Below, one piece after another: positions 1 through 52,565 of a stretch of DNA of 64,000 nucleotides. How positions within the stretch are numbered: the stretch's first letter is position 1; every line of letters begins with the position of its first letter. The DNA comes from Bacilli bacterium (GTDB taxonomy: Bacteria > Bacillota_I > Bacilli_A > RFN20 > DUOF01), in NCBI GenBank assembly GCA_045128835.1, contig JBGVRX010000029.1, positions 51,583 to 115,582 on the forward strand, given 5' to 3'. The position numbers and the translations under genes were made by a program. The notes beneath the pieces are model-generated. The model made no database searches. It saw nothing but the letters and a program-made list of their open reading frames with translations, and was not told where the DNA came from.

Positions 1-1426
1 AACTTTTTCCATTATTTTTAATCACTAAATAATCTTCTTCAGAAATTTCTTCTTTACTCCATAAATAATAAAGTGAATCAATTCCTGAATAATAATCAGT
101 AAAATTAACCTCTAGATTAACTTGATTATAATAATTTGTATCAATATAACCATCTTTATTTAAACTAAAACTAGGGGCGTTATTATCAAAGTAAAATATG
201 TAATAGTCACTAACATAATAATTTCCCGTATAATCATAAGCATAATATCTCATACAATAAGGACCATCATTTAAATCAGGACCTAAAATAAAACTAACTC
301 CGTTTTCATAAGCAAAATTATAACTTTGACCCCAATCACAAGTATTATAATAAGGAACTATTATTTGATAAAATAAATTACTTGGATCAATACCACTTTT
401 TGAATCATCAACAGTAATCTTTACTTCAACACTTTTAGCGTATTCATCAATTGATGCAACACTTGTATTTTCTTCATCTACAGTTGGTAATTCAGTATCA
501 AAATAAAATATCTCATCTAATAAAACTATACTATCTGGAAATCTACTATTACAATTAGTTTGACATTGCACTACTGTTTTAAATCTAGCGTATTCATAAT
601 TGATGTTATTATTAGAATCATATAACAAAGTATCTGCTGAATAATAAAATGTAAAGTTACCAAGGTAAGGAGTAAGATTTAATGATTGATTTCCAGAACT
701 TACTGTCTCTACGGCTTCATCTCTACAAATATTATCTCCTACACACACACTATTTGTAACCAAAAAAGTCGGGGCGTTATCCCAAGTTAAGCTAGATGAT
801 ATGTTATTAGACATATATCCTTTAACATAAACATATTTATTAGCTTGACTGAAATAATTGTCTACATATTTCTTACCTTCATTTTCAGTATAGAAAGTAT
901 CAACTAAAAATTGATAACTATAATCTAGTTCACTAGAAACAAACTCAATATCATCAAGTATAATTTCTTCATTACATCCATCATCTATACAAACAAGTTT
1001 GTTACTAAATTTAACATATTCAAAATTAAAACCTTCACTATAATAAGGCATATCTCCATCCCAAAATTGAAAGGAATAGGTTTCACTGCTAAGAATATCT
1101 TGAGGATTTTCTTGTTGATCTTTACCAGTTAAATCAGTTTCACAAAGTTCTTCTTGCCCGCTTACTTTGTAACAAAATTTATGCTCCCAACGATAACTTT
1201 TACCTGTTTCTTCTAAACCTTTTAAAGTTACCGCAAATTGCATTCTTTCTTTTATCACACCATAATCATCTTCCAAAGAATAATAAACAGGAAGTTTATC
1301 TGTTCCTACTTCAACTTCAAAAGTAGAACTAGAAACTTTTTTCGCAGAAACATCTATAGATTCCATGAATAAGGCACAAACAAAAACAAAAACAATATAT
1401 ACAAAATTAAATATTTTCTTCATCAT
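1..1426 (-). CDS. Secreted/cell-surface protein of unknown function. Partial: the C-terminus lies beyond the window start.
   Basis: Manual reverse-complement translation gives MMKKIFNFVYIVFVFVCALFMES..., a signal peptide followed by a Cys-containing, Tyr/Asn-rich region. The ATG directly abuts the stop of the upstream gene (sense TAAATGATG), and a GGAGG RBS lies inside the upstream gene's 3' end. Not in the ORF track because it is truncated. Confidence 0.5.
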   Translation of the reverse strand, partial: MMKKIFNFVYIVFVFVCALFMESIDVSAKKVSSSTFEVEVGTDKLPVYYSLEDDYGVIKERMQFAVTLKGLEETGKSYRWEHKFCYKVSGQEELCETDLTGKDQQENPQDILSSETYSFQFWDGDMPYYSEGFNFEYVKFSNKLVCIDDGCNEEIILDDIEFVSSELDYSYQFLVDTFYTENEGKKYVDNYFSQANKYVYVKGYMSNNISSSLTWDNAPTFLVTNSVCVGDNICRDEAVETVSSGNQSLNLTPYLGNFTFYYSADTLLYDSNNNINYEYARFKTVVQCQTNCNSRFPDSIVLLDEIFYFDTELPTVDEENTSVASIDEYAKSVEVKITVDDSKSGIDPSNLFYQIIVPYYNTCDWGQSYNFAYENGVSFILGPDLNDGPYCMRYYAYDYTGNYYVSDYYIFYFDNNAPSFSLNKDGYIDTNYYNQVNLEVNFTDYYSGIDSLYYLWSKEEISEEDYLVIKNNGKS

Positions 1427-2878
1427 TTACGCCTCCACTTCCATAATTAAATTTATTAAAACTAAATATACAATTAACACGCTTATCAAAATAATAAACA
1501 TTGTTTGAGTATATGGTACAACTATCATCAAACAAGGAATTACAAACCAAAACAAAACGCTTAAAACCTTAAACAAGAAGTAATTCTTTAATTTAGTTTT
1601 TTCTTCATTATCCCCTTTTAATAAATAATACATATCATTTTTCTTTATTAAAGCAGATTGACTTTTAAACCCATAATGATAAATATCTTCAACTTTACCA
1701 CCTAATAAATTAAATAACTTACTAGTATTCAATACTTTAACTTTTTCTGTATAAATAACTTCACTATCATTATTAAATTCAACAGAAATAATTAAATTAC
1801 CATTACTACCACCATATTTTCCTTCTTGACCTTTTCCTTCTATTTCCATTTTAGAAGTACATTTAGTAATGTTATGACAGTCAATTGTTTCTTCTAGACT
1901 ACAAACAGTGTAATCACCATTAAAATACACCATTTTATTCTTATAATTTTTGTTTATAAATAAATACATTTGTTTATCTTCACCATCGTATTTACTATTA
2001 AAAAATTTAAAAACAATCTTTTTATTATTAAAATCAAATTGCTTACTATATCCATCTTCAACAAAACAAGGAACCTCAAGTTTAAAAGCACCAAATTCAG
2101 AAAAATATTCTTTACTAAATCCAAATAAGGTTTCTTCTTTAGTTAAGTAATAATCTACTTCAATAACATCACCATTAATTTTAACATTTTCTTTATCATA
2201 AAAATCAAAAGAAACTTTCAAATTAGACTTAAGATTATTTCCATAGTCATCACCATAACCCTTAAATTCTTTAAAAGAATCATCAACGTAAAAAGCGATC
2301 TTATCTTTTGTTAAGTGATATCCTTTTCCTCCACACTTTTTACAATTAACACTTACTTTGCCTTCTCCTCTACAGATTGGGCACCAAATCATATGTTCTT
2401 TATACTCAACTACTTTTTCACCATTACAAGTTTGGCAAGTAACAAAGTCAACACATGAATCACATTTAACCTTATGAGAATATTCTATTTCATAACGCAA
2501 ATTCAAAAGTTTATATAGATAACTTAATTTAACATTAACTTCAATATCTTTATAACTAGAAACGCTCAAATCTTCTACACTGTTATAATCTATTTCTTGA
2601 ATTTCATTAACTTGATTTTCTTTACTAAAATAATCATACAGGTCATATGTTTTTAAAGCATTTTCTTTCAAAGATTCCTTATCTTCCAGATTATACATCT
2701 TTCGTCTTTGTTCATCTTTTATATTCTCATATGCCTTTATAATCTCTCTATATTTTTTATAAGCATGAATAGATGTGTTAAAAGAAGGATCATACTTTCT
2801 TTTTAAGTCATTGTATGATGTTTCAATTTCTTTATCAGTTGCATCTCTAGTAACATTTAAAATCTCATAACTATCCAT
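1427..2878 (-). CDS. Membrane-anchored DnaJ-like protein. It has an N-terminal J-like domain with a degenerate HPD motif, a CR-type zinc finger (CxxCxGxG x4), a DnaJ CTD-like region and two C-terminal TM helices.
   Basis: N-terminus DSYEILNVTRDATDKEIETSYNDLKRKYDPS aligns with the DnaJ J-domain DYYEILGV...KYHPD, but HPD is replaced by DPS. The zinc finger reads CDSC...CQTCNGEK...CPICRGEG...CKKCGGKG. The segment GKGQEGKYGGSNGNLIISVEF resembles the CTD GDLxVxV motif. A hydrophobic C-terminal tail follows. RBS AAGGAGATGA sits upstream. Confidence 0.6.
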   Translation of the reverse strand: MDSYEILNVTRDATDKEIETSYNDLKRKYDPSFNTSIHAYKKYREIIKAYENIKDEQRRKMYNLEDKESLKENALKTYDLYDYFSKENQVNEIQEIDYNSVEDLSVSSYKDIEVNVKLSYLYKLLNLRYEIEYSHKVKCDSCVDFVTCQTCNGEKVVEYKEHMIWCPICRGEGKVSVNCKKCGGKGYHLTKDKIAFYVDDSFKEFKGYGDDYGNNLKSNLKVSFDFYDKENVKINGDVIEVDYYLTKEETLFGFSKEYFSEFGAFKLEVPCFVEDGYSKQFDFNNKKIVFKFFNSKYDGEDKQMYLFINKNYKNKMVYFNGDYTVCSLEETIDCHNITKCTSKMEIEGKGQEGKYGGSNGNLIISVEFNNDSEVIYTEKVKVLNTSKLFNLLGGKVEDIYHYGFKSQSALIKKNDMYYLLKGDNEEKTKLKNYFLFKVLSVLFWFVIPCLMIVVPYTQTMFIILISVLIVYLVLINLIMEVEA

Positions 2879-2896: not shown

Positions 2897-3883
2897 CTAT
2901 AATAAATCTATAACCTCATTGATTAATCTGATATCTTTATACTTATCTCTATTTTTTAACAAGTATTTTTTTATATCACCTTTGTAATCTTTAAGTTTGA
3001 AAGATTCAAAACAACTTCCTTCAACTTCATCAATCACTACTTTTCCCACATTATATCCTTTTGTTTCTCTACCTATTTCTACAAAAGAATACTCACTAAA
3101 CTCTTTAATAATCTCTTCAATATAAATTTTATTTCCCTCAATTGTAAACTTCTTGCTTTCATCTACAACAAGAATATAATCACTATTTACTAAATTATTC
3201 TCTCTTCCATAAAACAAATTAACTTTGAAATTACTACTTAAAAATTCTTTTTTATCTTCACTTAGTTCTCTTGAATCATCTAGTTTTAAAGCATTCTTTT
3301 TTAAATAATCTTTAATATTTTTATTTATATTATTACTATTAACATCCATTTCAAAATAATATGGATTAGCTTCTAAACTAGTATAATTAAGTGCAATATC
3401 GTCATATCTATTAGACAATTCCTTCTTATATTTATTAATCAATTCTAAGAATTTAAAATCATTATTCCAAACAACAACATTGCTACTATTATTAATTTTA
3501 TTTTCACTAACTAATTCATTTTTTAAAGGATTATAAATAACCCTTTTCATTTCCTTTTTTTCTAATACAGGAATCTTATTTATATTCAAGCAATATTCTC
3601 CAAAAGCACTAAACTTAATATCATTAACTATAATTTCATTAATATCCTCACTATCACTATTATTAATGATAAGACCATTATCTAATAAATCATAAAAATT
3701 ATTTTGATAAAGGTACAACAAAGCCTTAGTTACATCCATATCCAATAAGACTTCACTAATAGTCTTTTTGCTTCCTTGTTTTATGATTTTGATTAGTAAA
3801 AACACAAATAAATCCATTTTTTCTAAATTATAAAGTTCAATTTCACTATTAAAATCACTAAAAGAAACAAAATTAATCTTCAT
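2897..3883 (-). CDS. Hypothetical protein, 328 aa, no recognisable motif.
   Basis: Long ORF, Lys/Asn-rich. Its start overlaps the helicase stop by 11 nt, suggesting translational coupling. Confidence 0.4.
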   Translation of the reverse strand: MKINFVSFSDFNSEIELYNLEKMDLFVFLLIKIIKQGSKKTISEVLLDMDVTKALLYLYQNNFYDLLDNGLIINNSDSEDINEIIVNDIKFSAFGEYCLNINKIPVLEKKEMKRVIYNPLKNELVSENKINNSSNVVVWNNDFKFLELINKYKKELSNRYDDIALNYTSLEANPYYFEMDVNSNNINKNIKDYLKKNALKLDDSRELSEDKKEFLSSNFKVNLFYGRENNLVNSDYILVVDESKKFTIEGNKIYIEEIIKEFSEYSFVEIGRETKGYNVGKVVIDEVEGSCFESFKLKDYKGDIKKYLLKNRDKYKDIRLINEVIDLL

Positions 3884-6800
3884 AATTTATCACCTCACCA
3901 AAATAGTTGTTTGGTTCATCAATCTTGCCTACAACTCTATCATAAATCTCACGATATATTTTTCTAACACTTACATCACTACTGTCATCTAATGCTTCCA
4001 TTTTAATTTTAAGACTTGAAAAGAATGGCTTAGATCCAACAATAATTAACATCTTTCTAGCTCTTGATAAGGCAACATTAATTCTTTCAAACTTCTTAAC
4101 AAAATCTCCAGCTTCAAAAAGAGGATTATTTCTAACAAAGTTAACAATAATAATATCTTCTTCTTTACCTTGGAATTCATCTACCGTAGAAACTTTACTC
4201 TTATTAAAATTCAAAGCTTCAAACTTCATTTTAGAAACTTCTTTTTTCAATTCACTAACTTGATCGCCATACAAAGAAATAACTCCAACACTGCACGCTT
4301 CCTTCATACTTCCTTCATCAATCAAAGCTTTATATCCTCTATCTAAAGTTTTTAAAATTTCTTTAGTTAAATAGATTTCTTCCTCATTATAGAAAGATGT
4401 TGAAACGATACTTCCCTTTTTCTTCTTTCTTTCATAACTTACATTACGATTAACATCATAATGAGAATTAAACCAATATGTATGAATGTTTTCTTCAAAC
4501 AAACTATAAGAGTTACTACTTACATTTAAATAGTGCCTCTTTGCCTCATTTTGTTCTTTTAAATTACCAAGTTTTAATTTATCATCATAGAAAATGTTTA
4601 CGACATCCATTATTTGCTCATGGCTTCTGTATTGATTTACTAACATGTATTTATTATTTCTAGATTTTTTGAATAATTCCTTAAACATACTATTTTCTAC
4701 TAAAGATTCATATTTAGAAAGCAATTCTTTATCACTATCGTCTTTAAACATCTTTTCCTTATATTTGAATAAAGGTGGTAATTGACGATGATCTCCTACT
4801 AAAATAATACTCTTTCCATATAAAATAGGAATTAAAAGTTCTACCCCATTAGCCTTACTAACTTCATCTATAATAACTACATCAAAATCTATATTTTTAA
4901 GTTCAATATCTCCTAACCCCAATTTCTTTAGATACTCATTTTTCTCTTCCAAATACTTAGAATTAGCGTTACATGTAATACTGTAAACATTCGCATTATT
5001 ATTTAGTAAATATTTCGTATATTTTACTTTATCCTTCTCTAGTAAATCTTCCTTGTTATCTTCAATGTATTTAATTACATCCTTATATAAAAATTCATAT
5101 TCCTTATATTTACTTTCTTCTTTTTCAAACTTATTCTTTTCTTGATTTATATAAGAATGAATAACATTTAAGCATCCTTCATCATCCAAAGGTCTCTTGT
5201 TAAAAGAAAGAATATTATTAAAATACTCATCAAAATATTCATCAATTTCTCTAAAGTCTTTTTCTCTTCCCTTAGTCTTATTTGCTATTTGATTATTTAA
5301 CTCATTAATCTCTTTTGATAAGGAACTTCTACTTTCTTTGTATTCATTAACCTTTGAACTATAAACATCTAAACTATTCTTTGCTTCATTATAAAAATTA
5401 TCTAAAGTAGAGATATTCTTGTTTATAAATTTCTTATAATCACTTGCAAACTTTTCGTTATTACTAAAATAAATTTTAAAATATTTTAAATAATCATTAA
5501 AATTTTCATACTCTTCATTTATTTCATATTCTTTTACAAATTCTAATCCTCTAAATACTGACGAAGATAAATAACCTTTGTATTCATTTATATCGTAATT
5601 ACTTCTTCTAAATTCATTTATAAATAACAAATTATTCTTGAAATCTCTAATCTTACTAAGAGAAACACTTATTTTATTATCCAATTCGTTTGCTTTGCTT
5701 TTTACAATATTTCTATTATTAATCAAACTTCTAACTTCTTTTCTTAAATTTAAATGTTTAATAACCTTATCTTTAATTTCTTCATATCTTACAAATGATT
5801 GCTCAACTGTTTTACCATATAAAACAAAGTTTTTCTCTTTGTTCAAATACTTATTTTTCATCTTTTCATAAAAATTATCTACAAGTTTATCTGGCAAATA
5901 ACTCTTATTAGATTTTATCTTTCTTTCACTGTTTACTAATCTAATTGGCAAAACATCTAGTTCATCAGGAAGTCTTTCAATAACATTGTCTATTGCAACG
6001 TGTGTTTGAGATGAAAGTAAAACTTTCTTTCCCATTTTATTATATTGGTAAACCATTTCTGTAATAGTTTGAGTCTTACCAGTTCCTGGAGGTCCTTGAA
6101 GTAAAAAGATAGAGTTCGAATTAATCGCACGATAAACAGCTTCTTTTTGATATTTATCCAAAGAATTATTGCTCCATACAATATCCTCTCTTTTTAAAAC
6201 ATCTTCACTAGTCTCAAACTCACTAATATTGAATAAGTAACTAGCAATACCAGGACTCTTAACATTACCTTCTCTTAAATCTCTTAAAGCTTGTTTTCCT
6301 CTTTTATAAAGTGCTACATCACCACTTAAGATATTAACCAAAACAGGCTTTTCTCCAAACTCTCTAGTAACATATTCATTAACTCTAGCAAAACTAAAAT
6401 ATAAATCTAAATCCTCATCACTCCAGAACTTTGAAAAAGAATAAGTTGCTTCCGTTTCACTTTCACTAACTAACTCTAACGGTTTTAACAAACTACCTAG
6501 TCTTCTAGTTTTAAAACTAAATTCTAATTCGTTATTTCCAACCTTAAGTTCTCCTTTTTCCAAACAATCAACTTCATTAGCTAATTCTATTTCTTGAGAA
6601 ACAAAAAATTGCAAATTGTTGAAACTATTCTCATTCTTTTTTATTCTAACTAGAAATTCTACAGCGATTACACTGTTATATGATTCATCAACCATCTCAT
6701 TTCCATCTACATAAAGATAATTATTACCATCATCAAAATAAGTGACATCCTCATACTTTTTACAAATATTTAAGTTTCTTTTAACCTCTTTTAACTCAAT

Positions 6801-7352
6801 TGCCTTAAATTCTAAAGTCTTATAGAATCCTAGTTTCTTTAAAAAATGTCTTTTTTCAAACTCTAAATAACTTTCAAAATCTCTAACAAAATCTAAACAA
6901 TGATAATCATAAACATTTGGAGTCTCATTAATAATATATCTAACAGTTTTAAGATCGCTCAACGCTTTCTTATAATCATTTTTTATTTTTACATCAAAAG
7001 AAAATTCTTTTTCATATTTTCGCATTTTCTTACTATCGTTTATGTAAATATCTTTAACCTTATAATAACTTTCTCCATCCTTAGTTATTATAAAGTCTCC
7101 AACAAATTGATATAGTTGTCCTTTTGGTCTAATAAAAAAATTTTTGTAAAAATCAAAGTTTATATCTTTTAAAAGTCTTCTTTCAAGACTTGAACATGCT
7201 ACAAAAAAAGTATTTTCTAGCACAACTACTTCTTTAACAAAATTATTCAAATCAACATTAATTTCATCTAAGTATTTATAAAATGATGCTCCTGCTAGTC
7301 TCTTCTTATATTCATCTTTATAAACTTCACTAAAATCAAAGAAAATACCCAT
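3873..7352 (-). CDS. Superfamily 1B helicase of the Upf1/DNA2/NAM7-like family (AAA_11/AAA_12 type). It carries an N-terminal domain of about 400 aa of unknown function and a coiled-coil insertion of about 390 aa.
   Basis: Walker A LLQGPPGTGKTQ (nt ~6085-6115). Walker B VVIIDEVSKA. Motif III VGDHRQLPP. Motif IV QYRSHEQI. Motif V TVDEFQGKEEDIIIVNFVRNN. Motif VI INVALSRARKMLIIVGS. A long heptad-like Lys/Glu/Asn-rich insertion lies between Walker A and B. RBS GGAGGTG precedes the ATG. Confidence 0.75.
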   Translation of the reverse strand: MGIFFDFSEVYKDEYKKRLAGASFYKYLDEINVDLNNFVKEVVVLENTFFVACSSLERRLLKDINFDFYKNFFIRPKGQLYQFVGDFIITKDGESYYKVKDIYINDSKKMRKYEKEFSFDVKIKNDYKKALSDLKTVRYIINETPNVYDYHCLDFVRDFESYLEFEKRHFLKKLGFYKTLEFKAIELKEVKRNLNICKKYEDVTYFDDGNNYLYVDGNEMVDESYNSVIAVEFLVRIKKNENSFNNLQFFVSQEIELANEVDCLEKGELKVGNNELEFSFKTRRLGSLLKPLELVSESETEATYSFSKFWSDEDLDLYFSFARVNEYVTREFGEKPVLVNILSGDVALYKRGKQALRDLREGNVKSPGIASYLFNISEFETSEDVLKREDIVWSNNSLDKYQKEAVYRAINSNSIFLLQGPPGTGKTQTITEMVYQYNKMGKKVLLSSQTHVAIDNVIERLPDELDVLPIRLVNSERKIKSNKSYLPDKLVDNFYEKMKNKYLNKEKNFVLYGKTVEQSFVRYEEIKDKVIKHLNLRKEVRSLINNRNIVKSKANELDNKISVSLSKIRDFKNNLLFINEFRRSNYDINEYKGYLSSSVFRGLEFVKEYEINEEYENFNDYLKYFKIYFSNNEKFASDYKKFINKNISTLDNFYNEAKNSLDVYSSKVNEYKESRSSLSKEINELNNQIANKTKGREKDFREIDEYFDEYFNNILSFNKRPLDDEGCLNVIHSYINQEKNKFEKEESKYKEYEFLYKDVIKYIEDNKEDLLEKDKVKYTKYLLNNNANVYSITCNANSKYLEEKNEYLKKLGLGDIELKNIDFDVVIIDEVSKANGVELLIPILYGKSIILVGDHRQLPPLFKYKEKMFKDDSDKELLSKYESLVENSMFKELFKKSRNNKYMLVNQYRSHEQIMDVVNIFYDDKLKLGNLKEQNEAKRHYLNVSSNSYSLFEENIHTYWFNSHYDVNRNVSYERKKKKGSIVSTSFYNEEEIYLTKEILKTLDRGYKALIDEGSMKEACSVGVISLYGDQVSELKKEVSKMKFEALNFNKSKVSTVDEFQGKEEDIIIVNFVRNNPLFEAGDFVKKFERINVALSRARKMLIIVGSKPFFSSLKIKMEALDDSSDVSVRKIYREIYDRVVGKIDEPNNYFGEVINYED

Positions 7353-7364
7353 CTATAACACCTC

Positions 7365-8714
7365 CTATCTTATAACTTTAACTATAACTTTATTTCCATC
7401 TTCATCTACTACAACGATTTCCTTCTTTTTGTTTAAAGTGACTTTTAAACCACTCTCAAACAAGTTAACTTCTTCAAAAAAGAACTTTTTATAATCTTGC
7501 AAATAAATAACTTTATCTTTTTTACTAACACGAACAGTAACCTTATATACATCATAGTTAAAAGGATTTAATTTAAAAACTGCGCTCTCACATTCATTTT
7601 TATCAAGCATGAATCCTTGTTCTTTAACTTCTACTTCTTTTTCTTCTTCTATATTTTTGGGAAATGACAATGTCAATTTACTCTTATTAAACTCAATTGT
7701 CTTCTTACCATCACTAACTTCATATTTAGTTAATTTAATAGGCATTGAATATAAAACATCATCAATACATTTAAAATCTTCTTCAAAGTAAATTTTTAAG
7801 TATAAGTCTCCTTGCTCTCCACCAAACTTACCATCTAACCCTTTTCCTTTTAGTTTAACAATTTTAAAATTGTTCGCTTCTTCTATTTCTATATACTGAT
7901 AATCTTTATTATTTATTTGTTTATAATAAGAAATGTTTAAACATTTTAAATTACTAGATAACTCTTTTTTATTAATATAAAATCCTGGCATATCTTTCTT
8001 TATAACGACATTTTTATAAACGTCTTTACCCTTTAAAGGAACTAGTTCACTCTCTATACAAATATAAAATGAGCCTTCGTTAATCCCTTGATTTTCAAGC
8101 TTAATTACTTCTCTAGTTTCTTCTCCGCTCGATTTTATTTTTTCAAAACCTTTTATAGTCTCTACATTTTTACTTATTCCTTTTATAATTTCTTCTTTAG
8201 AAAACTTTATTATTCTTTTGTCATAAACATCATTACCAACTACTTCAAAACATTCATAATCATTTATTTGAACTTTGATAAACAAATCACCTTTAATATC
8301 ATTACTTTCTCTTCCTTTTCCTTTTACAGTAATAATATCTCCTTCTTTTAAAGTTGGAGTTAATTGAACTTTAACTTTACCTTTTTTTACTAATTTACCT
8401 TTTCCTTCACATAAAGGACAAATGTTTTTAATAATTCTTTTATTCCCCTTACAGTGATTGCAAATCACTTTATTACCATTAATATTAATAAAACCTAACC
8501 CATTACATTTATCACACTTTTCGTAATATGTATTAAAATTAACACTCTCTACACATTTACAATCTTTTTCTACTTTACTTATAACTTCAACTTCTTTTCC
8601 TTTTAAAATATCCAAATATGAAAAAGAACCTTCATCATAAATATCTAGATTCTCTTTAACATTTAAATTATTCTCATAATTATAATTATCTACAAAAATA
8701 TTATTCTTTTTCAT
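7365..8714 (-). CDS. DnaJ-like substrate-binding module protein with a CR-type zinc finger and two DnaJ CTD-like repeats. It lacks a J domain.
   Basis: Zinc finger CKCVESV...CDKCNGLG...CNHCKGNK...CPLCEGKG. CTD-like motifs KGKGRESNDIKGDLFIKVQIND and GKGLDGKFGGEQGDLYLKIYFEED. No J-domain at the N-terminus. The start overlaps the coaE stop (ATGA). Confidence 0.55.
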   Translation of the reverse strand: MKKNNIFVDNYNYENNLNVKENLDIYDEGSFSYLDILKGKEVEVISKVEKDCKCVESVNFNTYYEKCDKCNGLGFININGNKVICNHCKGNKRIIKNICPLCEGKGKLVKKGKVKVQLTPTLKEGDIITVKGKGRESNDIKGDLFIKVQINDYECFEVVGNDVYDKRIIKFSKEEIIKGISKNVETIKGFEKIKSSGEETREVIKLENQGINEGSFYICIESELVPLKGKDVYKNVVIKKDMPGFYINKKELSSNLKCLNISYYKQINNKDYQYIEIEEANNFKIVKLKGKGLDGKFGGEQGDLYLKIYFEEDFKCIDDVLYSMPIKLTKYEVSDGKKTIEFNKSKLTLSFPKNIEEEKEVEVKEQGFMLDKNECESAVFKLNPFNYDVYKVTVRVSKKDKVIYLQDYKKFFFEEVNLFESGLKVTLNKKKEIVVVDEDGNKVIVKVIR

Positions 8715-9277
8715 TTTAATTCTCCTAGCAATTTTATTATAAAACTATCATCAATATTTTGCCCATCTATTATAAAATCCATTTCTTCCCTGTTATAATC
8801 ATTTTTCATAACTTCTCTTAAATCAAAATATTCATTAGTGATATTATCTCTTTTTATAACTCTATTCTTTCTTGTTTCATATTTAGTGTCTACTAAAATC
8901 TTATAGTCTAGTAAATTCCAATATTTTGTTTGATCTAAAATAATCCAATCTAAAAACACCTTTTTATCTTTGTTTTCTTTTATTATTCTATCTATAATTT
9001 CATTTTCTATTTTTTCTGTATAATCGTAATATTTTTGATATTTAACCTTATCATTAAAAACAATATTCCCTACTTTTTTTCTATCTAAAACTCCATTAAC
9101 TACAACTGAATTATCTTCTACTATTTTTACTATGTTCTCTACTATCTCTTTATCTTTTAAAATATCATGCCCGATTTTATCAATTTCAACATGAATTATA
9201 CCATCATCAAAAGACATCATTCTCCTAATTAAAGATGACTTTCCTGCTCCTGATTTTCCAACAACACCTATAAGCAT
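8711..9277 (-). CDS. coaE: Dephospho-CoA kinase.
   Basis: N-terminal P-loop MLIGVVGKSGAGKSS. Length of 188 aa and collinear similarity to CoaE (IGLTGGIASGKST...VIDAD...LDRKKLG...). A TATAAT-like -10 and GGAG RBS lie upstream. Confidence 0.7.
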   Translation of the reverse strand: MLIGVVGKSGAGKSSLIRRMMSFDDGIIHVEIDKIGHDILKDKEIVENIVKIVEDNSVVVNGVLDRKKVGNIVFNDKVKYQKYYDYTEKIENEIIDRIIKENKDKKVFLDWIILDQTKYWNLLDYKILVDTKYETRKNRVIKRDNITNEYFDLREVMKNDYNREEMDFIIDGQNIDDSFIIKLLGELK

Positions 9278-9308: not shown

Positions 9309-9334
9309 AAAAAAAAGAAGGAATAATTCCCTCT
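9309..9334 (-). terminator. Putative rho-independent terminator separating the upstream 248-aa gene from the coaE operon.
   Basis: Hairpin AGAAGG-AATAATT-CCCTCT (minus-strand RNA AGAGGG...CCUUCU) followed by a U-tract (A-run on the plus strand at 9309-9315). Confidence 0.4.
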
Positions 9335-9364
9335 TTTAAAGTGTACACAAGTAAAATATATACC

Positions 9365-10111
9365 CTATTTTTTACCTATATTTACTAGTATATATTCAAG
9401 ATAATTTAAAATTTGTTCTTTATCTTTTCTATCTGATGATTTTACTAGATTAGAATAATCATTTAATTCGTCAAAAGAAAGATTTTCATAGTGACTAGAT
9501 ATATATGCTTCTAACGTCTCTATACTTATTTTATCAGGCGCTAAATTATTTAATACAATCACATCTTTCTTTATTTCACTGCTACACTTTAAATAAAAAT
9601 TAGGATCATTTTTAATAAAGGCGCATTGAACTAAATTAGAACAATTGCATAATAATTCTATATCCTTTTTAGCAAGTTCGTATTGAACCTCTTCAGATGC
9701 ATATTCAAGATAAAATTTATTTTTAAAAACTACTTTATTTTGATTTTTTAAAGAAATCAAAGATAATTTTGATGGGTTATCAAAAGCAAATTTCACTTGA
9801 GCATCATCACTAGCGTATTTAACTTTATTATTGTTCTTTTCAATAATTTGAACTTGCAAATCTTCACTTAAAAGATGAAAATTCTCATTATTAACTATTT
9901 GCACTTGAATTTTATAACTTAAAAATTTAATAACCTCTGGTTCTAAATCAGCTAATTCTTTAACAACATTTAGATCTAATAATTCTAACTTTTTTCCCAA
10001 CTCATTTAAAATTAATTCATTATATTTTAGCTCACCAGAAAAAGTTTTCCACTCATCAATAGTAAATCCTTTTTTTAATTTTTTCAATGCAACTTTTTCT
10101 GTTTTTTTCAT
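9365..10111 (-). CDS. Hypothetical protein, 248 aa.
   Basis: Long ORF with no recognisable motif. Internal repeat IQVQIVNNENFHLLSEDLQVQIIEKNN. Lies 26 nt downstream of the 665-aa gene. Confidence 0.35.
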   Translation of the reverse strand: MKKTEKVALKKLKKGFTIDEWKTFSGELKYNELILNELGKKLELLDLNVVKELADLEPEVIKFLSYKIQVQIVNNENFHLLSEDLQVQIIEKNNNKVKYASDDAQVKFAFDNPSKLSLISLKNQNKVVFKNKFYLEYASEEVQYELAKKDIELLCNCSNLVQCAFIKNDPNFYLKCSSEIKKDVIVLNNLAPDKISIETLEAYISSHYENLSFDELNDYSNLVKSSDRKDKEQILNYLEYILVNIGKK

Positions 10112-10137
10112 AATTATTCCTACCTTTATAATGGCTA

Positions 10138-12135
10138 TTATCTTTTGCCTATAACATCTTTATCTGTCGCTAAACTTTCGCTAGAAACTTTCACATCACT
10201 TTCACTTACTTCACTTTGTAATAAATGCTCATTATTTTTCATTGCCAGCTTCATTCTATTTCTCTTTGCAAGTACTGTATATTGTTGCTTCTTTACAACC
10301 ACTATAGGCATCTTCCACCCTTTAGGCTTTAAACCGTTTTCAACACAATACTTAGTAAATGCTTCTGCAGCTTTTGCTTGAACATCACCAATCTCATCAC
10401 TACACAAAATGGCACTTGGAATGGTTTTACCACCAAATTCTTTGCTGTCCTCAAAATCAAATCTATCAATATCAACTTCGTTATAATTGCCCAAAGCTGT
10501 GTTTTTAATTAATTTATCAGCTACCATAAACCTTGCGCTATCACTAACTTCCACATCACTAACTCTAGCTTCCTTTGAACTGTTGATATCAGAAGGACTC
10601 ATAACAAGAATTTTTGCCTTATCAAACAAATAAGTTACTTGGACATCATCACATCCAAACAATTTATTATATTTATTAAATTCTAAATTATTTAAGCAAT
10701 CTTGATTTGTATATGAGCAACAAATGTGTGATGCTCCATTTTCGTATTCAAACCAAGAAGATGCAAAATCTCCTACAACACTATTTCCTGATAACCCTTT
10801 AACAAAATTTGTGGTAGATAAGAACGAGAAATCTGCTCCATCAAAAACATACACCGGAGAGTTAATAGCGGTTCCCTCTATTGTTTTTGGACTTTTAGCT
10901 ACATAAATTCCCTCTTCTAATCCATTGGCTCTTTTTTCAATTGACTCTACAGTCGATATTGTCTTCATCATGTTATTTTCAAATGCCAATGGCAATTTAT
11001 CAACAATATTTAAATAGTTTCCTTCAACAGTATTTCCTCTTTTTTCAAGGTATTCTGCATATTGCAAAAGTTTATAATAGTCTTCTTTAGAAGTAACACC
11101 TTCTGCAAAATCCAATATTTTAATTAGTCCTTTAATACCTTCAATTTCTTCACTTGTAAAAATAGAAGCAACATTATCTTCGTTATTCACAATAGATTCC
11201 ATATCAAAATATTCCTTCATAATTTGAGGTTTATTTTGAGACAAATAATAGGCCCACTTTCTATGTCCCAACATATCTAATGCATAATAGTTTCTAAAAA
11301 TAGCATCTGCTAAAAGGTTGGCAGCCTCTTTGCTGTCTCCTTGTTTCAATGCAACTTCTGCTTTCGTCTTTGCTAGTAAATACACCTTATTTTTGTTTTC
11401 GAAGAAATTATTTAGACCTTTAACGCTATGTACATTATATGGATTATCTATATCCTTAAATATTTCTATTAAAGAACTTTTTTGAACATCTGTAATTTTT
11501 TTATTATTTTTTCTTAAATCTCTAATAAGTGGTTGATATTCCTTAAATTCTCTAACCATTTTTTCAAAATTCACTCTAGAAAAATCTATATTTTTCTCAT
11601 AAAAATGATATAAATATTTAAAATCAGCCATTTTTTCCTTGTCAGTTAAAATGTCTTTAACAAGAATTAAAGAATGTGGTTTCAAATTTAAATTAAGTAT
11701 TTTATTAACAAAATCTTCACTTAAATTATCGAATACCTCTTGATGTAACACATGAATTTCACTAGCATTAAAAACATTAATATTCTTTCTTTGTTTTAAA
11801 ATTTTTACGGCTGATTTTCCAAAATGATTTCCTACAATTTTTAAAAAGGTTTGATGAGTTTTACTATTAATTTGCTCATCATTCATATAATTAAACGCAT
11901 TGGAAACATTACCATTATACTTATTATTTTCCACGCCAAAAATTCCTTTTTCTACATCCTCATTAATAGCGTCTATCAATTTATTTATTTCTTTTTTAGG
12001 AACGGAAGAAATTATTGATCTTTCAAAAAAATTAGCCACTAAAGGGCGTATTCTTTTGTCTTTTATTTTCAATAAATAGTAATTTAATCCAGGGTAATTC
12101 GCATTACTAAAATCAAAAACATTGTTTTTGCTCAT
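10138..12135 (-). CDS. Hypothetical protein, 665 aa.
   Basis: Long ORF with no recognisable catalytic motif. Its C-terminal half contains a Cys/aromatic-rich segment (GASHICCSYTNQDC...GCDD). Confidence 0.4.
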   Translation of the reverse strand: MSKNNVFDFSNANYPGLNYYLLKIKDKRIRPLVANFFERSIISSVPKKEINKLIDAINEDVEKGIFGVENNKYNGNVSNAFNYMNDEQINSKTHQTFLKIVGNHFGKSAVKILKQRKNINVFNASEIHVLHQEVFDNLSEDFVNKILNLNLKPHSLILVKDILTDKEKMADFKYLYHFYEKNIDFSRVNFEKMVREFKEYQPLIRDLRKNNKKITDVQKSSLIEIFKDIDNPYNVHSVKGLNNFFENKNKVYLLAKTKAEVALKQGDSKEAANLLADAIFRNYYALDMLGHRKWAYYLSQNKPQIMKEYFDMESIVNNEDNVASIFTSEEIEGIKGLIKILDFAEGVTSKEDYYKLLQYAEYLEKRGNTVEGNYLNIVDKLPLAFENNMMKTISTVESIEKRANGLEEGIYVAKSPKTIEGTAINSPVYVFDGADFSFLSTTNFVKGLSGNSVVGDFASSWFEYENGASHICCSYTNQDCLNNLEFNKYNKLFGCDDVQVTYLFDKAKILVMSPSDINSSKEARVSDVEVSDSARFMVADKLIKNTALGNYNEVDIDRFDFEDSKEFGGKTIPSAILCSDEIGDVQAKAAEAFTKYCVENGLKPKGWKMPIVVVKKQQYTVLAKRNRMKLAMKNNEHLLQSEVSESDVKVSSESLATDKDVIGKR

Positions 12136-23032: not shown

Positions 23033-23179
23033 AAAAATAAAACTCCCTTATTAAAAGGAAGTTCACTTCTAGTATAACTCCCTCTTATTGTTCATATCTC
23101 TATGCTTGGGTTAGCACCTTAAATTTTAGGTTGCTCTTACGTTTAACGGTCCCTATACCTACGTAAATCTTAATAAGAG
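23033..23179 (-). promoter_or_regulatory. SAM-I (S-box) riboswitch with a terminator expression platform, upstream of metK.
   Basis: Minus-strand RNA CUCUUAU...UAGGGACCG...GCAACC...AAGGUGCUAA...AUAAGAG, containing the P1 helix, AGGGA box, GCAACC and GGUGCUAA elements. Followed by hairpin ACUUCCUU-UUAAU-AAGGGAGU and UUUAUUUUU. Confidence 0.7.
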
Positions 23180-52372: not shown

Positions 52373-52565
52373 CTCCTCTTTCTTATTGTTTTATAATAAG
52401 CGTAATTACCTTTTCAATAAAAAACCCCTAAACCAAATTTTGGCGCAGGGGAAATAAATCAAGTTTATTTTCACCTCGGCAACCTTATTAAGTCCCTTGA
52501 CCGTTGCTGTCTTTGGTAATTAAGCATCATTATTTTAATAGTTTAATATGTATTTGTCAACTAAA
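52373..52565 (-). promoter_or_regulatory. Ribosomal protein L10 leader (autoregulatory attenuator) upstream of rplJ.
   Basis: An untranslated stretch of about 190 nt. Contains the hairpin CCCCUGCGCCAAAAUUUGGUUUAGGGG followed by UUUUUUAUU in minus RNA (plus strand ~52419-52452). Confidence 0.5.

Follow-up and report, generated by a model that had tools for sequence, protein, structure and literature searches.

A Mokosh-related Upf1-like helicase and its gene cassette with DnaJ-like members in a Bacilli bacterium

The helicase and its neighbours in the cassette

The present analysis deals with a helicase gene and the cassette of genes surrounding it in a stretch of 64,000 nucleotides, referred to below as the window, from a Bacilli bacterium (assembly GCA_045128835.1, contig JBGVRX010000029.1, positions 51,583 to 115,582 of the forward strand). 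The helicase gene (3873..7352) consists of a single open reading frame (ORF) starting with ATG, and its product of 1159 residues is a Upf1-like helicase of superfamily 1B (SF1B) belonging to the clade of MkoA, which forms the Mokosh type I system together with the PLD nuclease MkoB (Millman et al., bioRxiv 10.1101/2022.05.11.491447). The helicase gene is preceded by JC449 (7365..8714), and followed by U328 (2897..3883), J483 (1427..2878) and a surface-protein gene (1..1426) that runs out of the window. The genes of the cassette are all carried by the minus strand, as are all the features located below by window positions, and they either overlap or are separated by 0-18 nt, a terminator-like hairpin occurring only upstream.

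A preliminary description of this DNA, made from the letters alone, had recognized a Upf1/DNA2-like SF1B helicase from six motifs, all of which are present: GPPGTGKT (residues 420-427), DEVSKA (829-834), VGDHRQLPP (852-860), QYRSHEQI (907-914), TVDEFQGKEED (1056-1066) and VALSRARK (1093-1100). The Walker A, the Walker B and the motifs Ia and III to VI are complete across two RecA domains, which Pfam assigns to AAA_11 (residues 398-566, E-value 7.5e-35) and AAA_12 (residues 886-1108, E 1.9e-40). According to Pfam, to the alignment with IGHMBP2 and to the motif positions, the first part of RecA1 with the Walker A and motif Ia covers residues 396-487 (5892..6167); the rest of RecA1, with the Walker B DEVSKA and motif III, and RecA2, with motifs IV to VI, cover residues 821-1112 (4017..4892), as delimited from Pfam and the relatives in the Protein Data Bank (PDB), namely IGHMBP2 (E 8e-30), DNA2 (5e-26), Sen1 (5e-24) and Upf1 (about 1e-21). 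The kinship with defence helicases, for which a comparison with Mokosh had been suggested, is borne out by the PADLOC profile of MkoA (PDLC03920), which matches residues 183-1141 of the helicase along positions 442-1094 of 1112, with an E-value of 4.2e-103. Among 34 full-length orthologues of 45-100% identity, the motifs were found invariant or nearly so in 21 that share 45-82% identity with the window protein, and an invariance maintained down to 45% identity indicates that the helicase is under selection to stay active. It is therefore predicted to be a catalytically intact Upf1-like SF1B enzyme of the Mokosh MkoA clade and, taken by itself, it is ordinary for its family.

The two parts of RecA1 are separated by a K/N/E-rich, heptad-like insertion (residues 488-820; 4893..5891) located at the 1C position. 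In the IGHMBP2 alignment, residues 342-487 and 821-864 of the query correspond to residues 137-278 and 365-408 of the chain, and 333 residues stand where IGHMBP2 has about 86. The distance between K426 of the Walker A and D829 of the Walker B amounts to 403 residues, close to the 390 or so previously estimated, and the Lys/Glu/Asn-rich, heptad-like character attributed earlier to the intervening region agrees with its composition (K 14.7%, N 13.5%, E 11.7%, a single Pro) and with a heptad score of 0.80 against 0.69 +/- 0.017 in shuffled sequences (about 6 standard deviations, with peaks at 534-580 and 634-694), this score being a home-made heuristic and not that of COILS. Since the related helicases, which also match MkoA (E 1e-93 to 1e-116), all spread some 1000 residues over some 640 profile positions, the insertion is family-wide. 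Weak matches of the JetC, LmuB and tropomyosin types were obtained for relatives bearing the insertion.

The region ahead of RecA1, comprising the first 400 residues or so, had been regarded as one uncharacterised N-terminal domain devoid of recognizable motif. No significant fold match was found for it in structure searches, residues 1-182 have no match in Pfam, NCBIfam or the PDB sequence profiles, and the sole library profile reaching into the region is that of MkoA, which extends back to residue 183; the IGHMBP2 alignment extends back to residue 342. The structure predicted by AlphaFold from an alignment of 31 diverse members has an overall confidence (predicted local distance difference test, pLDDT) of 86 and consists of several units and not of one domain, i.e., a small alpha/beta unit (1-53), a five-stranded beta unit (66-123), helices (134-171), a beta domain (175-310) and further helices (321-382). 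The notion of an uncharacterised domain thus stands for residues 1-150 only, a subfamily-specific N-module (6903..7352) modelled with a pLDDT of about 90. Residues 151-395 (6168..6902), made of a long helix, the beta domain and helices, depart from it, as suggested by the MkoA and IGHMBP2 alignments and by recurrent fold matches, all weak and limited to Sen1, Upf1, SETX and Aquarius; this part fits an ordinary stalk/1B accessory region common to MkoA, Sen1 and Upf1.

The same N-terminal region had also been put forward as a candidate effector or sensor. Over the 31 diverse members, the only invariant residues among its 396 positions are R75, E114, F165, F250, G344, L348 and R351, a set without any His, Lys or Asp constellation and without catalytic pattern. 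The earlier failure to discern a PLD HxK or a PD-(D/E)xK signature is confirmed by this alignment and by the fold searches, and both types of nuclease are ruled out here for lack of conserved catalytic residues and of any fold match. The region is rare, a profile search with its 396 residues having yielded only 83 clusters among 1.84 billion representatives, nearly all of them N-termini of proteins of 1100-1800 residues. It is not peculiar to the window protein, however, since many helicases of 1250-1540 residues begin with a segment that the corresponding hidden Markov model (HMM) matches along its positions 3-393 (E 1e-21 to 1e-57). The N-module of the window helicase is shared by helicases of a sister operon containing PIN and ClpB-like proteins (L010, L013 and L014), and it is exchanged for other N-termini in helicases that keep the same partner genes. 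Such an exchange would be expected of a sensor or docking element more than of an effector, and it is in this sense that a function is proposed for residues 1-150; the helicase N-terminus is very unlikely to be the effector, and in relatives a PIN domain resides on the neighbouring gene.

Two genes of the cassette encode DnaJ-like proteins. JC449 possesses a zinc finger and DnaJ C-terminal domains without a J domain (Pfam DnaJ_C, E 1.2e-20, and DnaJ_CXXCXGXG; TIGR02349 positions 110-318, E 9e-33). J483 comprises a J-like domain (Pfam DnaJ, E 8.8e-12), a zinc finger and a DnaJ C-terminal-like region (TIGR02349 positions 1-306, E 1e-28), followed by a hydrophobic stretch (433-483) predicted to form two C-terminal transmembrane helices. 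With TIGR02349, J483 and JC449 score 100 and 114 bits, respectively, far under the equivalog cut-off of 377. The HPD tripeptide, which is required for Hsp70-dependent folding work, is replaced by DPS in J483 and by DPS, DPx or NPx in all eight orthologues, a loss also visible upon alignment with the J domain of Escherichia coli DnaJ; the zinc centre C148, C151, C166 and C169 is invariant in the J483 orthologues. From these sequence features, J483 would not be a working J protein, and neither J483 nor JC449 would be able to use the canonical HPD contact. A membership of J483 in the TopJ families (NF037946 and TIGR03835) was considered and rejected, the alignments being confined to the J domain, with respective scores of 41 bits (cut-off 300) and 26 bits (cut-off 512).

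The surface-protein gene starts directly after the J483 stop codon, and the window contains its first 475 residues, including a signal peptide. The contig L078, 99.7% identical to the window, was used for the part beyond window position 1; the complete protein it encodes is made of 825 residues with Ig-like domains and a C-terminal membrane anchor. At the other end of the cassette, a CoaE-like P-loop kinase of 188 residues (8711..9277) is the first gene of the predicted transcription unit and overlaps the start of JC449 by 4 nt, in a translationally coupled arrangement. Its TIGR00152 (dephospho-CoA kinase) score of 68.1 bits is barely above the cut-off of 65.55, and outside the closest relatives (L001, L002 and L004) the gene does not accompany the cassette; it may be either the housekeeping CoaE or a cassette component. 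The terminator-like hairpin, an 11-bp stem followed by a T run (9313..9337), lies upstream of the CoaE-like gene and likely marks the start of the operon.

The partner domain and its distribution

The nature of the gene following the helicase was inspected in a wider family sample, made of 78 loci where a related helicase is encoded. The gene directly downstream belongs in 54 of them to the so-called B family, defined by an N-terminal domain of approximately 135 residues, and 20 of the remaining 24, in which the helicase seems to stand by itself, contain a downstream gene of approximately 250 residues, so that a helicase followed by a gene with a related N-terminal domain occurs in 74 of the 78 loci. 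The 328-residue winged-helix protein U328, which matches no family in the libraries, is connected to this family by its N-terminus, which aligns with that of the B proteins (hhalign probability 96%, E 2e-9) and is detected at E 1e-5 to 1e-6 by a profile built without it. The model of U328 (pLDDT 92.9) consists of an N-terminal winged helix and of beta-rich domains without fold match. A nuclease in U328 is ruled out, all fold matches being with winged-helix proteins and the histidine count being zero.

The connection of the B domain to Mokosh comes from a Pseudanabaena plasmid on which a genuine Mokosh type I system is encoded, comprising a helicase with a kinase part and an MkoB whose PLD domain has the HxKx4D motif (residue 425); the N-terminus of this MkoB is recognized by the B profile (hmmsearch 7e-7, hhalign 81%). 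As for the proteins of about 250 residues, their family aligns with the B domain (hhalign 82%) and for two of the three tested the PADLOC profile of MkoB gives a match in its N-terminal portion (E about 1e-7; 6e-8), none of the three having a Pfam or PADLOC match to PLD or PIN. The occurrence of this shared N-terminal domain in the downstream genes indicates that the conserved pair consists of the helicase and a partner with that domain. What comes after the domain is variable, namely PLD in MkoB, PIN in most of the long B proteins and nothing recognizable in U328. About 20 Bacillales genomes (L061, L041, L049 and L052-L077; Sporosarcina and others) contain an MkoA-like helicase followed only by the MkoB-N-related protein of about 250 residues, a further pair of helicase and partner apparently devoid of nuclease. 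In Anaeroplasma bactoclasticum (L009:9785-15979), where the helicase has 1542 residues and the N-module of the window protein, a DUF2130 protein takes the place of B downstream and an RNase T-like exonuclease gene lies upstream.

The sister operon mentioned above consists of an MkoA-like helicase, a winged-helix/PIN protein (B), a protein of about 375 residues without family match (C), a ClpB-like AAA+ protein resembling the second ATPase module of ClpB (D) and a Cx3Cx2C 4Fe-4S protein (E). The helicase-B-C-D order is found in 28 loci, and the E protein, of about 190 residues and a single-cluster 4Fe-4S type, is added in about 35 loci when the plasmid and IMG/VR loci fetched later are counted. 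Examples are L020:8861-19077, L014:9638-18842 and the IMG/VR contigs L080-L088, together with plasmids of Moellerella (L079, 7068-17021), where the operon neighbours ArdA and IS1 on a conjugative plasmid, and of Acinetobacter (pNDM1_010055, L107, 3298-13017). The operon is widespread, being present in many phyla, on Acinetobacter pNDM1 plasmids and on predicted viral contigs of IMG/VR. Neither PADLOC v2 nor NCBIfam has a name for B or C, and the RefSeq annotation of the operon is only generic. The HMMs of C and D gave no match in the window or in the eight loci most related to it (L001-L008), and JC449, J483 or the U328 C-terminus compared with C, the D N-terminus or the middle region of B gave hhalign probabilities all below 1%.

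The window cassette itself was followed by tblastn and HMM searches. JC449, the helicase, U328, J483 and the surface protein are encoded in the same order in L001-L008, which are metagenome-assembled genomes of uncultured Bacilli or Erysipelotrichaceae, the L003 contig being cut at its upstream end. The five genes are present in every locus, window included, whose contig reaches them, with helicase identities of 45-80%; JC449 stands upstream of the helicase wherever the contig extends that far, and the surface-protein gene follows J483 in all eight related loci. Among these, L005 differs in both flanks and keeps the five genes. Only eight species with the cassette were found among the 185,579 species genomes scanned. 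Compared with L007 and L008, the cassette proteins show identities of 25-48%, against 74-82% for the adjacent glycerol-metabolism genes. In L078 the surface-protein gene is followed by a PHP-domain gene and then, some 1 kb away from the cassette, by an AbiLi/AbiLii-like abortive-infection pair (9563-11324; PADLOC E 6.5e-66 and 1.4e-4), and the AAA_21 genes located at the same position in L001, L002, L006, L007 and L008 suggest that this pair is conserved there.

The surroundings are those of an ordinary chromosome of a low-G+C bacterium, as indicated by a G+C content of 24-35%, rpoB/rpoC-sized genes, a ribosomal protein L10 leader (52410-52534) and a SAM riboswitch (23082-23179). No tRNA gene occurs within the 64 kb, and the location of almost every gene of the window on the minus strand results in a strongly negative GC skew all along it. 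Two genes without family match, U248 and U665 (9365-12135), separate the operon from the conserved DUF1667/GtrA genes and occur only in the closest relatives; L004 has two copies of U248, and in L100 U665 is broken up into two ORFs. U665, a variable gene outside the operon, has a weak and probably spurious Cas5_IIId match (E 5e-6).

Possible functions of the cassette

The reading we favour, tentatively and at a little less than even chances, is that the cassette represents a conflict system of the Mokosh type in a variant that is coupled to chaperones and lacks a nuclease. Under this reading the helicase would move in the 5'->3' direction along foreign RNA or single-stranded DNA, the N-module and the coiled-coil arm would serve recognition and assembly, and U328 would bind the helicase in the manner of MkoB. 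JC449 and J483 would act on protein clients, by binding or remodelling them with no stimulation of DnaK, and would anchor the complex at the membrane; the output there may be an envelope-linked exclusion or abortive infection and would not consist of nucleic-acid cleavage by the helicase polypeptide. In favour of this reading are the intact helicase of the MkoA clade, the conservation of the cassette, L005 included, the recurrent pairing of such helicases with a partner bearing the related N-terminal domain, the variable nuclease of that partner, the chaperone-like proteins of both accessory sets, the location of sister operons on plasmids and IMG/VR contigs, the nearby AbiL pair and the fast divergence of the cassette proteins relative to adjacent metabolic genes.

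Several observations weigh against this reading. Searches with Pfam and PADLOC and the fold search on U328 revealed no nuclease or toxin domain in the cassette, and no effector activity was identified; the direct comparison of U328 with MkoB was negative, their link being only transitive through the B family. The cassette is chromosomal, occupies the same site in most of the nine genomes, is present in four of four informative same-species contigs and is apparently inherited vertically; its orthologues were not found on plasmids, phage genomes or IMG/VR contigs, where only the sister family was detected. The surface-protein gene is counted as a functional part of the cassette by linkage alone, and the AbiL neighbourhood makes a weak argument for defence because this synteny is inherited by descent and is not independent.

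The chromosomal setting also suits the main, though rather unlikely, alternative of a lineage-specific housekeeping module of a small clade of gut Bacilli, with a helicase recruited from a Mokosh-like ancestor. Such a module would consist either of membrane-anchored DnaJ-like holdases that assist the Ig-like surface protein encoded next to them in its biogenesis, maturation or quality control, a loose analogy being TopJ, a J protein that serves adhesin function in Mycoplasma, or of a membrane-tethered RNA-protein surveillance complex. A site beside glycerol-metabolism genes kept in most genomes, the constant presence in same-species contigs, the absence of transposase or integrase nearby in the window (gene and Pfam scans), a surface-protein gene that directly adjoins the stop codon of J483 and varies together with the cassette, the predicted membrane anchor of J483 and the failure to find a nuclease or toxin domain all speak for it. 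However, the relatives of the helicase sit in mobile, defence-type operons, the cassette proteins diverge much faster than their neighbours and remain confined to eight species, the TopJ match is restricted to the J domain at 41 bits against 300, and the HPD motif of J483 is lost.

The loss of HPD and a U328 deprived of the PLD or PIN of its relatives could also be read as marks of a decaying, non-functional Mokosh-type remnant from which the nuclease has disappeared. This is highly improbable, since helicase motifs invariant over the 21 orthologues, five genes intact in nine genomes, and conserved cores in U328 and the N-module, both of which fold confidently, denote purifying selection. Very unlikely, too, is a single-chain sensor-effector whose N-terminal 400 residues or so would form a novel nuclease-like effector. 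Many defence helicases carry fused effectors, residues 1-182 contain no known domain and the MkoC and Hhe profiles give partial matches to the helicase, but half of the region is probably an ordinary Upf1-type accessory structure, neither a catalytic constellation nor a fold likeness to any nuclease is apparent, and relatives with the same N-module have their PIN domain on the neighbouring gene.

The locus shows that the conserved unit is the helicase and the partner with the shared N-terminal domain, the nuclease, whether PLD, PIN or none, being an exchangeable add-on. ClpB and DnaJ cooperate in protein disaggregation, and the occurrence of ClpB-like proteins in one accessory set and of DnaJ-like proteins in the other, both from the Hsp100/Hsp40 world, suggests that protein remodelling, and not only cleavage, is part of the mechanism of the family. 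A broader proposal places Mokosh-type helicases at the centre of a much wider and modular family of immune systems able to do without the nuclease, which protein-remodelling partners could replace: a ClpB-like unfoldase in the sister operon, and the HPD-less, membrane-anchored DnaJ-like proteins with the surface Ig-like protein in the window. The cassette would in that case link cytoplasmic sensing of foreign nucleic acids by a helicase to the envelope via chaperone-like adaptors and provide nuclease-free immunity. This proposal is doubtful and must be regarded as unlikely at present. Both this modular picture and a nuclease-free, DnaJ-coupled, membrane-linked variant would be unexpected. In addition, the sister operon, carried by Acinetobacter NDM-1 and other plasmids, may be an unrecognised and clinically widespread system of defence or plasmid competition.

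Comparison with known systems

The helicase resembles Upf1, IGHMBP2, Sen1/SETX and DNA2 in its two RecA domains with all motifs and, probably, in the stalk/1B-like region preceding RecA1; it differs from them by a larger 1C insertion, by the additional N-module and by its location in a bacterial operon. With respect to DnaJ and CbpA (Hsp40), J483 is similar along the J domain, the zinc finger and the C-terminal domain, and JC449 along the last two, whereas J483 has lost HPD and gained two transmembrane helices and JC449 is devoid of a J domain. Components of the Hsp70/DnaJ type occur in other conflict systems (PMC7159879), and this is the one precedent retrieved by a literature search that yielded nothing linking DnaJ or ClpB with Mokosh or Upf1-like defence helicases.

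Compared with Mokosh type I, the likeness lies in the MkoA match over residues 183-1141 and in the position of U328 directly downstream, with an N-terminus probably related to that of MkoB via the B family. In contrast, none of the neighbouring genes has a PADLOC MkoB or Pfam PLD match, and the window helicase is devoid of the kinase-like part, positions 1-441 of the MkoA profile being unmatched and no kinase being recognized by Pfam or NCBIfam, whereas a serine/threonine-kinase-like domain was reported in MkoA (Millman et al., bioRxiv 10.1101/2022.05.11.491447). The window helicase possesses, moreover, an extra coiled-coil insertion of about 250-330 residues, and is accompanied by two genes for DnaJ-like proteins and one for a surface protein. 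With both the PLD partner and the kinase-like domain missing, the cassette should not be filed as Mokosh. According to a preprint, purification failed for the proteins of two systems, among them Mokosh type I.

With the sister operon, the differences are the absence of PIN, C, D and E from the window cassette, which from its gene content is not a member of the PIN/ClpB-like operon, and the mobility of the latter as opposed to the chromosomal, clade-restricted distribution of the DnaJ variant. Both have in common the same helicase subfamily, including the insertion, the same N-terminal domain in the partner protein, and an accessory gene drawn from the protein-remodelling machinery.

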